Virus record (IMG/VR): IMGVR_UViG_2778261463_000004
Location: 1 to 12,325 of that record
Source: a virus
Taxonomy: Duplodnaviria; Heunggongvirae; Uroviricota; Caudoviricetes
DNA length: 12,325 bases
Reading direction: 5' to 3' (one strand)
Shown: positions 6,001-9,000 of the stretch, one piece after another
Numbering within the stretch: position 1 is the first letter of the stretch
Layout: each line of letters begins with the position of its first letter
Made by a program: the position numbers

Positions 6001-9000
6001 TCACTGAGGCAGGACAGGCAACCGGACACCCGTTTGACAGCTTTCCCCCTGACATTCGGGCCCGTCAGCACATAGCGTGTATATTTTCCGTGTTTCCCGC
6101 AGGACACCGTCTCAGAACTTTGCACCCAATGCTCACAGCGCCACGGACGCTTTCCGCCACGGACAAATGCCAGTTCCTCTTCCAGGTCAGCCCTGCGGTT
6201 GAGTAACTGCGCTTTGTCGTATTGCATGTGTTGTTTGTTCAGGAAATTAGTCATTTTCACACCCCACAAAATCACCAGTTAAAGTTCGTTGAGCCGTAGT
6301 CCTGCTCACTGAATCCCGAGATCGGGAGGCTTTTGCCCCGCCCACCTCCGGGAGCGGCTGGCTGTTGCCAGAAGTCTTCGAAGTGACGATCGGGGCCAAA
6401 GAACGTCGCAGCCTGCTTCACGAACTGTGTGCCGGTATTTCCTGTCGCACGTACCCAGGCGGCATACCCCTTCACGCCATCAAGCATGGTCTCCGGTTTT
6501 ATTCCCTCCCTGATACGGGCTTTCCAGGCTTTGAAGGCTGCTGACTTGGAATTACCACCAGCACGTTTGGGATATTCCTGCCAGGCCTGTTCAAATTCCG
6601 GTGAATATTCCTGCCGGGCAGAGCGCGCTGGTGCAGACGCGTCAGCGGATGCGCCAATAGTGTTTTTAGTCTCCGTTGTAATCTCTGTAGTAATCTCTGT
6701 ATTTGTATCAACATTCGGCGTATCCCCTGTTCCGTTATGACGTTGGGGGGTGTTCCGTTTTAACGTAATAGCTGTGTCGCTGACTGTGTTATTGCTGTTG
6801 CTTTCTGACGAAACAGAAGAAGGTGTGGTGATGGCAGCAACTGCCTGTGGGTTGATCCCGACAAACAAAATATTGCTGCATTTCACACCATCGAGCATTT
6901 CCACAGTGCGTAAATCCAGGGTAATAAAACCGGCATCCCGCAGACGCTTCAGCGCATCTGCAGTTTCCCTTTTCCCGAAACCAAACTGCTCAGCAAACGC
7001 CTGATAGCTTCTTTGCAGCTTGTCCCCCTGAAAACGCTTGCGATATCCCAGCAAAGCCCCGGTATGCTCATCCCGGACTTCTGTCGGGCGGTACCAATAA
7101 ACGATCTCTGAGAGCAGGGCGATAGCGGTCGCATCCGGACGACCACTGGGTAGCCGAATATGTTTCCACCAGTTCGCTGGTGTGACATTGCCGGAAATAT
7201 TAATCTGCCCAATAGCCATAACTTCCGGTGTGGGGGCGTAACGACTCATACAGCCTCCTTACGCGGCATAACAATGGTGTAACCCCGGGCAGGCTGGAGC
7301 CGGGCTTTTGCATCAATAGTGAGCGTTGCAATTTTACGGATACGCAGATACCCCGCCCTTTCCAGGGCCAGGGTTTCTCTGAACATTGCCTGTTTTGAAC
7401 AGCAACAAAAATCGGCAAGGACCTGGTGATCAATAACCCTCTCACCTTCACCGTCTGAAGAACCCGACATCAAAACACGCAACATAATCAGGCGCTGAAT
7501 CGGATTATCGAAAACACTTCCGCATACAAACTGAAAACAGTTCACACAGCACCTCCCAGGCGTTTAAACATTTTTCCGGACTGAAACGCCACCAGCGGAT
7601 AACTCAGGGTATGAGTACGTCCCTGAACCTGACAGACAACCTTCTGGCTTTCTGTATTGACCAGGCAAACCCGCAGAACGTGGCCGTTGCTGGTGGTGAA
7701 CCACTGCCCCACACGGGGGCAACGGTTGTATCGGTGATACAGGAAATTAACGATGCGGCGAATCATGGATGTACCTCCTGCACATCAGCCATGATCATTT
7801 TGCTGGCTGTTTCCAGCGCCCGGTCGGAGCTAATTTGCATGACAGCCAGTGAATGAGGAACGAAAGCCCCGGCATATTCTGTTTCACTGGTGGCGTGCTT
7901 ATGCGCCCTGTCTGCAATAACAGAGATGTCAATAAGCGCATCCATCAGGGTTTTAATTACCGTAGCGGCCGTCTCTGAATAATGGTTATTACACATGGCG
8001 AGCCTCCCGTTGATTACGACGGAAAGTGGAGTTATTCAGGCTGTTCTCTGCCTCATGGAATGCTTCAAGGCAGCTCTCGTAGTACCGCATTGTGCGTAGA
8101 CTTAACCCAAGCTGAAGCATCATCAGGCCATCAAGGGTGATGTAATAACCACGCAGGGAGTCACCATAGATGTGGTAAGTACCCGGTATAAAGTTGCGGG
8201 TAAAAAATTCGCGCGAGCAGTTCAGATACTCGATTTTGTCGACGATGTTCTGGTGCATGCGCTTAAAGTGGCAGGCAACATGCAGGGAGAAAATAACAGC
8301 TTTGCCGTTGACGACTTCGATTTTGAGGAATGGGGAAGTTGGGACTGTAGCCATGATGGCAGCCTCCTTGATCGGTGAAAAACTTCCACCACCGGAGCTG
8401 CGAAACTCATGGGTGGTGAACTGAACAGGGTTCGCAGTACCGGCGATCAAGGAAACCGGCGAGCCTTTCGGCTCCCCTGCCCAGCCCACCATAATTCTGG
8501 CGTGCATGAGCGCAGACGATAAAAAAGACGCTGGCGCGTCGTATATCGCCTTGATCAATTCCGGGCTGCGACCCCCGGCACCCGCTTTATAAGGTGCTGG
8601 AACAGTGTAACGTCCCGAAATTGCAGAATCAATATTTAGGCTTGAAACATTCATATGCTTACTGGTATTTTTACTAACGCAAATGTTCTTGGATGTTACT
8701 GGCTTACTTCTTTGTGAAGTTGCCTTTACCAACGTTGAGCGAGCCGGGTCACTACCCGGCTTTTTTTCACCGCTGCCAACCAATAACCTGAAATAACCCC
8801 ATTTTCGGGTGATACCAGCGAGTCCCTCGCGGTTCTGCTTCCTCCATTACCCGATAAAAAGCAGCCATAAACGGTTCCACAGCAACAATTGCGCGACGTG
8901 ACAACAATCCGTCCGGCGTCATGAACTCGTGGGTGTCTGTAGGAATTTGATAAGCGTTCACCAGATTGCGGCATTTATCATCTGACAAACCGGTTTTCGC

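Follow-up and report, generated by a model that had tools for sequence, protein, structure and literature searches.

What do three small ORFs do between the Rha-type genes and the replication initiator gene of a lambdoid prophage? The question arose from a 12,325-nucleotide stretch of viral DNA (IMG/VR record IMGVR_UViG_2778261463_000004), analyzed at its full length and referred to here as the window, whose host element is a phiP27/SfV/Stx-'Eru'-type prophage. The gene order cI, cro, Rha, Ash/Rha, small ORFs, O, DnaC, DnaB is that of the Rha and Rha/Ash 'Eru' Stx phages; for these phages, replication control has been described as unknown and the small ORFs are undiscussed (PMC8951638). The original prediction for this locus was that three translationally coupled ORFs of 77, 74, and 99 aa are expressed as one early-right transcript, that none carries a recognizable motif, and that, by their position, they might be host-takeover, anti-defense, or replication-accessory proteins.

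Three small genes in a chain

The three ORFs at 7246-7996, called orfA, orfB, and orfC here, were borne out at the predicted coordinates and lie on the minus strand (Table 1). As had been claimed, a strong Shine-Dalgarno site precedes each of them, and their overlaps with neighboring genes span 4-8 nt. Read from the sequence, orfA overlaps the upstream Rha-type ORF by 8 nt at the junction ATGTGTAA, and the orfA/orfB, orfB/orfC, and orfC/O-like initiator junctions are ATGA, GTGA, and ATGA overlaps, respectively. With start/stop overlaps at four junctions and a GGAGG-type Shine-Dalgarno site 4-7 nt before each start, the genes form a putative coupled operon, whose order is Rha-type ORF, orfA, orfB, orfC, O-type initiator, DnaC-like loader, and DnaB-like helicase. 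Overlaps of 4 nt are frequent in phage operons regardless of gene function. The open frame of the Rha-type ORF, the first cistron of the chain, runs 5' to 8783, and this extended frame carries the annotation 'ash family protein'.

Table 1. Positions of the genes, ribosome-binding sites, and RNA elements of the chain in the window, in order of transcription.
Feature	Position	Strand	Details
IsrK-like sRNA gene (Rfam RF01394)	8521..8597	minus	57.6 bits (gathering score 50)
C4/CI-type antisense RNA gene (Rfam RF01695)	8409..8496	minus	85 bits (gathering score 45); full-length, model positions 1-87
C4 loop target CGATCAAGGA	8365..8374	minus	overlaps the Shine-Dalgarno site of the 8354 ORF
Rha-type (antirepressor-like) ORF	7989..8354	minus	121 aa from internal ATG 8354; Shine-Dalgarno AAGGAGG at 8369-8363
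orfA Shine-Dalgarno GGGAGG	8008-8003	minus	within 3' end of the upstream ORF; 6 nt to ATG
orfA	7996..7763	minus	ATG start, 77 aa, PHROG 5146
orfB Shine-Dalgarno CAGGAGG	7780-7774	minus	within 3' end of orfA; 7 nt to ATG
orfB	7766..7542	minus	ATG start, 74 aa, PHROG 1153
orfC Shine-Dalgarno GGGAGG	7557-7552	minus	within 3' end of orfB; 6 nt to GTG
orfC	7545..7246	minus	GTG start, 99 aa, PHROG 4617
O-like initiator Shine-Dalgarno AAGGAGG	7260-7254	minus	4 nt to ATG
O-type replication initiator	6272..7249	minus	325 aa; variable N-terminal domain, conserved DnaD/LvrA-C-like C-terminal domain
DnaC/IstB-like helicase loader	5364..6275	minus	downstream in chain
DnaB-type replicative helicase	3967..5406	minus	

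All three ORFs are annotated by the NCBI pipeline in E. coli prophages that are approximately 92% identical, and each matches a PHROG family (E-values from 3e-28 to 2e-43). Comparison with homologous loci indicates purifying selection on all three, with dN/dS values of 0.16-0.23 for orfB and 0.06-0.13 for orfC; those for orfA are given below. The evidence supports orfA-C as genuine small genes that, judging from their junctions, are probably coupled to one another and to the initiator gene. Expression as one early-right transcript was upheld in part: co-transcription in the early-right direction still stands, but the chain is probably not simply one pR transcript, since IsrK-like and C4 RNA genes with their own promoter-like site lie upstream. 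No promoter-like or terminator-like sites were found on the coding strand of 7246-7996.

It had also been proposed to compare related prophages to see whether the trio varies as a cassette, and it does not. Among 5426 complete E. coli genomes, orfA-like DNA was found in 836, orfB-like DNA in 407, and orfC-like DNA in 196, and the full orfA-orfB-orfC trio is present in 8, which rules out a single cassette. Each gene assorts independently and is optional among related phages; the three are separate mosaic units inside the chain.

RNA genes upstream of the chain

Within the "Ash" region, 400-600 nt upstream of the trio, lie two RNA genes that had at first been missed. The IsrK-like gene scores above its Rfam gathering threshold, has a terminator-like site (8540-8527), and directly follows a promoter-like TTGATT-N17-TACACT sequence, part of a block conserved in 12 phage loci that we consider a putative promoter. 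It precedes the C4-type gene, and the chain starts approximately 55 nt downstream of the latter. Across loci, the second C4 hairpin carries a loop with 9-10 nt of complementarity to the first cistron's Shine-Dalgarno site; in the window, the 10-nt match is the only one in the 3.1 kb downstream of the RNA, where chance would give 0.23. Sequence changes in the loop are matched in the target (6 co-varying types in 10 loci), and the IsrK/C4 pair is present in 13 further loci. By its covariance score and its loop-RBS complementarity, the C4-type RNA is a candidate repressor RNA. Direct targeting of the orfA-C Shine-Dalgarno sites by C4 or IsrK was rejected, as the matches there were chance-level 8-mers.

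How such an RNA might act on the chain is suggested by the P1 c4-icd-ant, P4 CI-epsilon-alpha, and Gifsy-1 isrK-orf45-anrP operons. By analogy, pairing of the C4 RNA would leave the first cistron untranslated, loss of coupling together with transcriptional polarity would keep orfA-C and the replication genes low, and lifting of the block would allow the entire chain to be produced in fixed proportions. That C4 silences the entire chain is proposed on these parallels, and a pR read-through transcript may escape such silencing. P1 provides the precedent of the C4/icd/ant operon (PMC8201110); in Gifsy-1 isrK-orf45-anrP, the mechanism has been shown to involve translational coupling, P4 CI controls replication genes, and IsrK is described as a structural homolog of P4 seqA (PMC4825925).

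The likeness to each of these systems has its bounds. The P1/P7 immI region (c4-icd-ant) likewise has a C4-family RNA at the 5' end of the operon with a loop that pairs with the first cistron's ribosome site, and a first cistron coupled to downstream genes that include an antirepressor-type protein and small ORFs. Unlike immI, the operon in the window runs via three small ORFs into the initiator, loader, and helicase genes, carries an IsrK-like sRNA gene 5' of C4, and contains no small ORF that is Icd-like. P4 immunity (seqA-CI RNA-seqC; epsilon-orf151-alpha) shares the succession of an RNA immunity element, small ORFs, and then a replication gene, and the IsrK-C4-orfA module precedes RgdR and pri-rep in E. 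coli PICIs that have P4-type integrases; the window, in contrast, comes from a lambdoid prophage with an additional cI/cro switch of the LexA type, its replication genes are of the O/DnaC/DnaB type rather than alpha, and its orfA has no detected similarity to a P4 protein. In Gifsy-1, too, a terminator-bearing IsrK precedes a stable RNA region resembling C4/CI and an antirepressor gene coupled in translation, but the Gifsy-1 operon ends in isrJ and acts via AntQ, whereas the chain in the window carries orfA-C into the replication module.

What the three proteins may do

For now, the three proteins are ordinary conserved hypotheticals. Single-sequence and profile searches of PDB sequences gave no meaningful match for any of them, and PADLOC and NCBIfam searches gave nothing useful. 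The best PDB Foldseek E-values were 4e-3 and 2e-2, too unspecific to name a function. Consistent with the original prediction, no homolog of orfA-C with a characterized housekeeping role was found. The view that none carries a recognizable motif needs qualifying, since OrfC models as a winged helix-turn-helix (wHTH) and OrfB as an SH3/KOW-like barrel with weak DUF4222 similarity. As for the roles first raised, nothing was found for anti-defense or host takeover, and a replication-accessory function is still a live reading. We favor, with confidence and doubt in about equal measure, an RNA-gated early operon in which OrfB and OrfC are small nucleic-acid-binding accessory or regulatory factors for early-right/replication onset, OrfA is a partner of the Ash/Rha module, and none of the three is an anti-defense protein.

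OrfC is basic (pI 9.0), and its AlphaFold2 model (pLDDT 75) is a winged helix with helices at residues 15-27, 40-46, and 51-63 and strands at 67-72 and 86-91, i.e., the predicted topology is H1-S1-H2-turn-H3-hairpin wing. Foldseek matched it to wHTH proteins only (e.g., TubR, AbfR2, PerR, MarR, and the Orc1 winged-helix domain); these PDB matches are generic winged-helix folds and therefore cannot choose between a regulator and an initiator. The Cys triplet noted earlier, FCCCSK, is present at residues 46-51 of 99; as FCCCS(K/R)Q, the motif sits at the HTH turn between helices 2 and 3, and FCCCS is retained in 4 of 5 distant relatives inspected. From the model, we consider OrfC a likely stand-alone winged-helix DNA-binding protein that would be co-made with the initiator.

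Its association with the initiator gene is close. In nine of nine other loci examined, from E. coli, Enterobacter, Serratia, Salmonella, Pantoea, and metagenomic sources, orfC directly precedes the initiator gene; the two overlap by 4 nt at eight of these loci and are 2 nt apart at the ninth (L027). OrfC matches the N-terminal 93 positions of PHROG 4617, annotated as 'replication initiation protein' (E 3e-28), and is 55-68% identical from Escherichia to Serratia and Pantoea. A tie to one type of initiator domain was ruled out, as OrfC precedes at least three N-terminal and at least three C-terminal types, and orfC is absent from phiP27 and Stx1 phages having the same initiator/DnaC/DnaB set; being dispensable and not bound to one initiator type weakens the case for a specific replication partnership. 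OrfC shares its fold class with the N-domains of O-type initiators (HTH_36, PHROG 4617/391); unlike those initiators, it has no helicase-loader-recruiting C-terminal domain, and nearly all members of its family are stand-alone proteins of approximately 100 aa. The idea that OrfC is a split-off or paralogous initiator N-domain gained no support: BLAST against the initiators of the window and a Stx1 phage found nothing, and hhalign against HTH_36 initiator N-domains was not significant (E 0.094). In Pfam there was no PF13730 match and the best hit was HTH_Crp_2 (15.9 bits vs. a threshold of 27); one homolog, from Pantoea, has a weak precomputed HTH_36 (PF13730) match. A Rosetta-stone fusion via the 214-aa relative P0237 was also discarded, as P0237 is not fused to the initiator and its gene precedes a separate HTH_36 initiator gene. 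A tblastn search for OrfC in the phage collection returned no match.

The strongest rival to this reading of OrfC, which we regard as unlikely but deserving of weight, is that it is a functional analog of lambda CII or P22 C1, i.e., a lysis-lysogeny transcription factor of approximately 100 aa with no role in replication. In prophages of Enterobacter and Salmonella, no gene but orfC lies between cro and O, exactly the cII/c1 slot, and OrfC homologs are named 'transcriptional regulator' by NCBI. OrfC is also about the size of CII, has a predicted DNA-binding fold, and, like cII, maintains 55-65% identity across differing cI/cro and initiator types. Against this, OrfC is modeled as a winged helix whereas CII is all-helical and YdaT has a POU-like fold; there is no Pfam CII match and no sequence similarity to CII or YdaT. 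In one locus (L025), an OrfC-like domain occurs alongside YdaT itself, a described functional equivalent of CII (PMC9986795). The cro-O position is confined to the Enterobacter and Salmonella loci; in the window, orfC is 2.2 kb from cro with five other genes between, and PHROG 4617 carries a replication annotation. Finally, phiP27 and the Stx1 phages lack both orfC and cII, so a CII-slot gene is not required in this phage group.

OrfA is an acidic protein of 8 kDa (pI 5.3). It travels with the IsrK-C4-leader ("Ash") module, E. coli PICI satellites included: in PICI-type satellites of E. coli and in lambdoid prophages, homologs approximately 71% identical are encoded directly 3' of the Ash/IsrK-C4 region. 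Similarity to P4 epsilon, P1 Icd, or another deposited phage gene was rejected, as tblastn against 50,697 phage records gave no match. We consider it quite unlikely that one or more of the trio, acidic OrfA especially, are anti-defense or host-takeover effectors carried as accessory cargo of the early operon. All three are small early genes that are dispensable and assort independently, OrfA is common to PICIs and prophages, which are elements in mutual interference, and the analogous operon of P1 encodes the cell-division inhibitor Icd (PMC8201110). One low-divergence orfA pair has a dN/dS of 1.26, with 13 non-synonymous and 3 synonymous changes. A ratio from a single pair with only 3 synonymous changes does not amount to positive selection, which we rejected, as 13 of the 15 pairs lie at 0.10-0.31 (the remaining one at 0.54). 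Moreover, OrfB and OrfC have basic, nucleic-acid-binding predicted folds under strong purifying selection, and each gene keeps a fixed place next to regulatory or replication genes and is not part of a variable accessory hotspot. No similarity to known anti-defense proteins or defense components was found in PADLOC, Pfam, NCBIfam, or PHROGs; the PADLOC negative is weak because that library holds defense rather than anti-defense proteins.

The favored reading assigns OrfB, too, to the onset of replication. OrfB is very basic (pI 10.9), and its AlphaFold2 model (pLDDT 81) shows a five-strand SH3/KOW-like barrel preceded by a helix at the N terminus, with Spt5/NusG KOW, Tudor, and SH3 domains as the top Foldseek matches. 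Against PDB and BFVD, the fold returned generic SH3/KOW/Tudor/DUF1653 barrels and no match named DUF4222; Hfq ranked 33rd in the fold search (probability 0.47). The composition first reported, with 3 Cys and many Arg (8, with 3 Lys), is correct. A Cys/His zinc site was ruled out: the SfV homolog has other residues in place of C16 and C34, and the mEp460 and ST64B homologs likewise in place of C34, so that the Cys residues are not all conserved in 50%-identical homologs and do not form a metal-binding motif.

Several comparisons point weakly to Pfam DUF4222 (PF13973). OrfB scores 14.2 bits (E 0.033) against this family, below the gathering score of 27 bits, and the hhalign comparison (E 0.017) is in register across the whole domain. 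A DUF4222 HMM built from six sequences gave 11.7 bits, equaled by 2 of 20,000 shuffles, and the reciprocal test was significant for the 58-aa subtype only. Homologs of OrfB were found by tblastn in 65 phage genomes; in all inspected loci, SfV, mEp460, ST64B, phiP27, and a Stx1 phage among them, orfB lies between a Rha/antirepressor gene and a replication gene. In prophages of Serratia and Pantoea, this slot is taken by true DUF4222 genes, and in PICIs, RgdR-like genes are directly 5' of pri-rep. OrfB is probably a distant DUF4222/RgdR relative, and it is a conserved link joining the antirepressor gene to the replication gene. RgdR/DUF4222 proteins are similarly small and basic, and in mobile elements their genes directly precede a replication gene; OrfB differs in scoring below the Pfam threshold, in its length (74 aa vs. 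99 aa), and in having no known effect on type III secretion.

RgdR, the only characterized DUF4222 protein, activates LEE1, represses motility, and binds DNA non-specifically (PMC3378721). OrfB might accordingly be read as a lysogenic-conversion factor that modulates host gene expression (type III secretion, motility) rather than serving the phage cycle, which strikes us as improbable. The weak DUF4222-like similarity and the frequency of OrfB in Stx phages of EHEC speak for it. However, OrfB lacks both the C-terminal extension of RgdR and the RGD tripeptide needed for RgdR activity (the equivalent stretch is PRVGQW), and it is present in phages of LEE-less hosts (Salmonella ST64B and Shigella SfV). 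Situated in a lytic operon behind a C4 block, orfB would probably be silent in lysogens, and the position directly 5' of replication genes, in PICIs too, suggests that the primary role of RgdR itself concerns the element and not the host.

That orfA-C have no protein function, serving only as translated spacers to pass ribosomes on from the regulated first cistron to the initiator gene, or else being decaying remnants, is very improbable: each gene is optional in related phages and Gifsy-1 anrP is made translatable by relay through an upstream ORF (PMC4825925), but the amino acid conservation of OrfC from Escherichia to Serratia and Pantoea, dN/dS values far below 1, and the confident compact folds predicted for OrfB and OrfC all stand against it.

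Replication gating in prophages and satellites

A coupled chain under a C4-type RNA target would be a testable model of replication gating in these phages, and gating of replication in Stx phages bears in turn on toxin gene dosage. OrfB and OrfC become candidate nucleic-acid-binding regulators instead of anonymous hypotheticals, and the occurrence of the IsrK-C4-orfA module in both PICIs and these prophages suggests an RNA-based layer of helper-satellite cross-talk. The genomic context of RgdR is now linked to a phage and satellite replication module. In E. coli PICI satellites, the IsrK-C4-orfA module heads an operon that ends in RgdR and a primase/replicase.

A broader proposal, to which we give little credence, is that the IsrK-C4 switch and the small-protein chain constitute a P4-style, RNA-gated replication license common to lambdoid helper prophages and E. 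coli PICIs. Under such a license, OrfB and all DUF4222/RgdR proteins could be KOW/Sm-like barrels that switch the replication operon on, acting either on an RNA/termination step or on the initiator; if so, this barrel action would explain the pleiotropic effects of RgdR on host transcription. The C4 loop types could then be immunity specificities by which satellites and helpers read or jam each other's replication switch, and the 'missing repressor' of Gram-negative PICIs would be supplied.

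A coupled gene chain behind two RNA genes

The window, read from right to left along the minus strand, corresponds to the early part of a prophage of lambdoid type. The original prediction had placed three small ORFs (orfA, orfB and orfC) at 7246-7996, each with a strong Shine-Dalgarno (SD) site and overlapping its neighbours; these positions were exact, the strand is minus, and reading the junctions from the sequence confirmed a GGAGG-type SD 4-7 nt 5' of each start and within the preceding gene. The start/stop overlaps along the chain are ATGTGTAA, ATGA, GTGA and ATGA, and no promoter-like or terminator-like site was found on the coding strand of 7246-7996.

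Genes and RNA genes of the window, read from right to left
Feature	Position	Strand	Remarks
cI	9854-10546	+	LexA/S24-type
cro	within 9785..9471	-	YdaS-type
Rha-family gene	9474..8767	-	
"Ash/Rha" ORF	8783..7989	-	
IsrK-like RNA	8597..8521	-	Rfam 57.6 bits; own terminator
C4 antisense RNA	8496..8409	-	Rfam 85 bits
orfA	7996..7763	-	77 aa
orfB	7766..7542	-	74 aa
orfC	7545..7246	-	99 aa, GTG start
O-type initiator	7249..6272	-	
DnaC/IstB-like loader	6275..5364	-	
DnaB helicase	5406..3967	-	
85-aa ORF		-	after the DnaB helicase gene
RusA		-	
Antiterminator Q	3363..2668	-	
DNA methylase		-	
Holin	1045..767	-	

The two RNA genes, which the original prediction had missed, were detected by Rfam on the coding strand inside the 5' (Ash) part of the ORF upstream of orfA, an ORF that other annotations label 'ash family protein'. 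The Pfam Phage_ASH domain (nt 8609-8334) covers the same stretch as the two RNA genes, so conserved RNA genes, or else dual use of the region as in Gifsy-1 orf45, may account for much of the 'Ash' protein-family signal. The IsrK and C4 pair was present in every Ash-bearing locus checked, i.e., eight E. coli prophage loci (including phiP27 and an Stx1 phage), SfV, mEp460, ST64B, and two PICIs; in the PICIs L019 and L020, the Ash gene is truncated and the Rfam match is absent. A few nucleotides 5' of IsrK lies a promoter-like TTGATT-N17-TACACT (8598-8640, minus), which is kept in 12 phage loci and upstream of which the sequence diverges abruptly; the PICI L015 has TTGATC-N17-TATGAT at the equivalent place. 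Since this block matches 8 of 12 consensus positions, it was missed by a consensus scan.

In the second C4 hairpin, the loop TCCTTGATCG (8443-8453) is exactly complementary to CGATCAAGGA (8374-8365, minus), which lies in a target region about 35 nt downstream of the C4 RNA and overlaps the SD (AAGGAGG) of an internal ATG at 8354, the start of a 121-aa Rha-type ORF ending at 7989. Six loop sequences occur among 10 loci (the window and comparison loci L001-L006, L015, L022 and L023), with the target changing to match each, and no other 10-nt target for the loop was found in the 3.1 kb downstream. Judged from the sequences, this is compensatory covariation, and the six loop/target types resemble separate specificities of RNA immunity. 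Another complementary pair, a CACCACC-type 3' stem and a downstream GGTGGTG, also seems to co-vary.

The C4-targeted Rha-type ORF, orfA, orfB, orfC and the initiator gene O form a coupled cistron chain, followed on the same strand by the DnaC-like and DnaB-like genes. Pairing by C4 would leave the first cistron untranslated; coupling would then be lost and, with polarity, the small ORFs and the replication genes would stay low, and once the block was relieved all products of the chain would be made together. To the overall reading, in which this coupled chain is gated by C4, OrfB and OrfC are nucleic-acid-binding factors, and OrfA accompanies Ash/Rha, we give an even chance. The architecture seen here is that of P1 c4-icd-ant (PMC8201110 and references therein), of P4 seqA-CI-seqC, by which the replication operon of P4 is silenced (summarised in PMC4825925), and of Gifsy-1 isrK-orf45-anrP, in whose switch translational coupling has been shown by experiment to take part (PMC4825925). 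The operon is of a known type, the C4/IsrK-gated antirepressor operon, here extended into the O/DnaC/DnaB replication module. Among Stx phages, the group to which this operon belongs is classed as the "Eru" types Rha or Rha/Ash, and its control of replication is described as unstudied (PMC8951638).

OrfC as a predicted winged-helix protein

About 48 homologues of OrfC were found across Enterobacterales, nearly all of them stand-alone, 97-107 aa long and 55-98% identical, and a profile search of 1.84 billion representative proteins retrieved only 25 matches, almost all about 100 aa long. The motif F-C-C-C-S-(K/R)-Q is nearly invariant and was kept in four of the five very distant relatives inspected. 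The AlphaFold2 model (pLDDT 75) is a classical winged helix (H1, 15-27; H2, 40-46; H3, 51-63; wing, strands 67-72 and 86-91), and the Cys triplet thus falls, in the model, on the turn that joins H2 to the recognition helix. Its PDB matches are generic winged-helix folds (TubR, AbfR2, Phr, PerR, MarR, TFIIE, and the Orc1 winged-helix domain), and sequence and profile comparison did not demonstrate paralogy with initiator N-domains. OrfC is, as modelled, a winged-helix protein by fold only.

Nine further loci were examined, from E. coli, Enterobacter, Serratia, Salmonella and Pantoea and from three metagenomic contigs, and in each of them the initiator gene directly follows an orfC-like gene, which overlaps the initiator start by 4 nt in eight loci and is separated from it by a 2-nt gap in L027. 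Because the initiators 3' of orfC carry at least three unrelated N-terminal domains and at least three C-terminal domains, because the loci differ in cI/cro type, and because phiP27 and the Stx1 phage have the same initiator C-domain, loader and helicase without orfC, the predicted DNA-binding protein OrfC is best described as an optional product that is co-expressed with the initiator rather than a constant subunit of any single type of initiator.

A role like that of lambda CII is attractive, since in the loci from Enterobacter and Salmonella no gene other than orfC stands between cro and O. However, its fold differs from that of CII, an OrfC-like domain occurs in the prophage L025 together with YdaT, a described CII equivalent (PMC9986795), and related phages have no gene in the CII slot at all; we consider such a role unlikely, though not negligibly so. 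The OrfC relative in L025, P0237 (4001-4645), is a 214-aa protein with an additional C-terminal domain weakly like O-like N-domains (PHROG 9773, E 0.003). Its gene overlaps by 4 nt a separate downstream HTH_36 initiator gene, and the same prophage encodes the YdaT-type regulator.

OrfA, OrfB and the independent assortment of the trio

Comparison with related prophages, proposed in the original prediction as a way to see whether the trio varies as a cassette, did not bear that idea out: among 5426 complete E. coli genomes, orfA-like DNA was found in 836, orfB-like DNA in 407 and orfC-like DNA in 196, versus the whole trio in 8. Many prophages carry an unrelated 64-aa gene followed by orfB and orfC, orfB alone is directly 5' of the initiator gene in phiP27 and the examined Stx1 phage, and orfC is alone in Enterobacter and Salmonella prophages. 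A tblastn search of 50,697 deposited phage genomes gave no match to orfA or orfC, yet these occur in hundreds of E. coli chromosomes; orfB, the positive control, was found in 65 of the phage genomes. The trio proteins are conserved hypotheticals, and the trio itself is ordinary. Anti-defence or host takeover, suggested for the trio at first alongside a replication-accessory role, we regard as improbable.

OrfA is acidic (pI 5.3) and has no family annotation. Its homologues (78-86 aa, about 71% identical) lie mostly outside lambdoid prophages, in E. coli PICI-type satellites with P4-type integrases, where the order is int, alpA, Ash, orfA, one or two ORFs (75-77 aa), RgdR, pri-rep, SSB and PerC; RgdR was first described from this type of PICI, the EcCICFT073/OI-51 family (PMC3378721, PMC6092414). 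Within lambdoid prophages, orfA again follows the Ash/Rha gene, overlapping it, and OrfA is probably a companion of the Ash/Rha module, itself putatively RNA-regulated. The module of IsrK, C4, leader ORF and orfA is located 5' of RgdR and the primase/replicase in the PICI-type satellites L015 (2972-4277) and L017. The global repressor of Gram-negative PICIs is described as unclear (PMC6092414), and an RNA repressor of the IsrK-C4 type would be a candidate. The proposed RNA-gated coupled chain, and the fact that PICIs share it, offer a lead that can be tested.

OrfB is very basic (pI 10.9), and its AlphaFold2 model (pLDDT 81) shows a helix at the N terminus and, after it, a small barrel of five strands, whose nearest solved folds, the Spt5/NusG KOW, Tudor and SH3 domains, are generic. 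Formal membership in DUF4222 failed. Several weak signals with one shared alignment register appear to point OrfB toward DUF4222: the Pfam match, below threshold, had E 0.033, PHROG 1343, a 59-position family without assigned function and with no established tie to DUF4222, was matched at E 0.003, hhalign gave E 0.017, 2 of 20,000 shuffles reached the score of OrfB against a DUF4222 HMM in an empirical test, and the alignment with DUF4222 members is in register. The link is supported by gene position, since true DUF4222 genes occupy the orfB slot directly 5' of orfC in Serratia and Pantoea, and in E. coli PICI-type satellites an RgdR-like DUF4222 gene directly precedes the primase/replicase gene and overlaps it by 4 nt. 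In the phage loci inspected (SfV orf38, mEp460_042, unannotated ORFs in ST64B and phiP27, and an Stx1 phage), orfB lies between a Rha/antirepressor gene and a replication gene. The SfV homologue has other residues in place of C16 and C34, which rules out a metal-binding motif for the OrfB cysteines.

RgdR, the one DUF4222 protein to have been characterised, is an activator of LEE1 and a repressor of motility, and its binding to DNA is non-specific (PMC3378721, PMC10877973). That OrfB is likewise a regulator of the host is doubtful, slightly more so than anti-defence or takeover for the trio. OrfB and OrfC are most likely small nucleic-acid-binding accessory or regulatory factors of early expression and replication onset.

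The NCBI pipeline annotates all three ORFs in E. coli prophages about 92% identical, each ORF matches a PHROG family (E 3e-28 to 2e-43), and pairwise dN/dS is 0.06-0.13 for orfC, 0.16-0.23 for orfB, and 0.10-0.31 in 13 of 15 pairs for orfA, the other two being 0.54 and, in a pair of low divergence with just 3 synonymous changes, 1.26. On these grounds the three are real genes. A trio without protein function is very improbable.

Other features of the window

The O-type initiators are modular (window 6272-7249, L004, L005, L007, L012-L014 and L027 compared): most loci share, at 56-94% identity, a C-terminal domain of DnaD/LvrA-C-like type, the winged-helix domains at the N terminus fall into at least 3-4 unrelated types, and the junction falls in a Thr/Glu-rich linker (TEITTEITTE). 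Within the initiator gene, two pairs of direct repeats lie at 6572-6619 and 6728-6766, ATATTCCTGCC(A/G)GGC with 33-nt spacing and TGTTCCGTT(A/T)T(G/A)ACGT with 23-nt spacing. The lambda ori lies inside O, and by analogy these repeats could be origin iterons.

A perfect 13-nt inverted repeat, TCAATTTCCACAG / CTGTGGAAATTGA, with arms 1 nt apart, is located at 9326-9352 within the first Rha gene. Between that gene and the Ash region, a G+C-rich hairpin, GAGCCGGGTCACTACCCGGCTT (8741-8762), has an A-run at one end and a T-run at the other, and is a possible bidirectional terminator parting pR read-through from the putative IsrK promoter. Antiterminator Q and holin are separated by a gene for an N6/N4 DNA methyltransferase and an ORF of 75 aa (1050-2102, minus), in a slot which we take to be the late-operon place of toxin genes in Stx phages.
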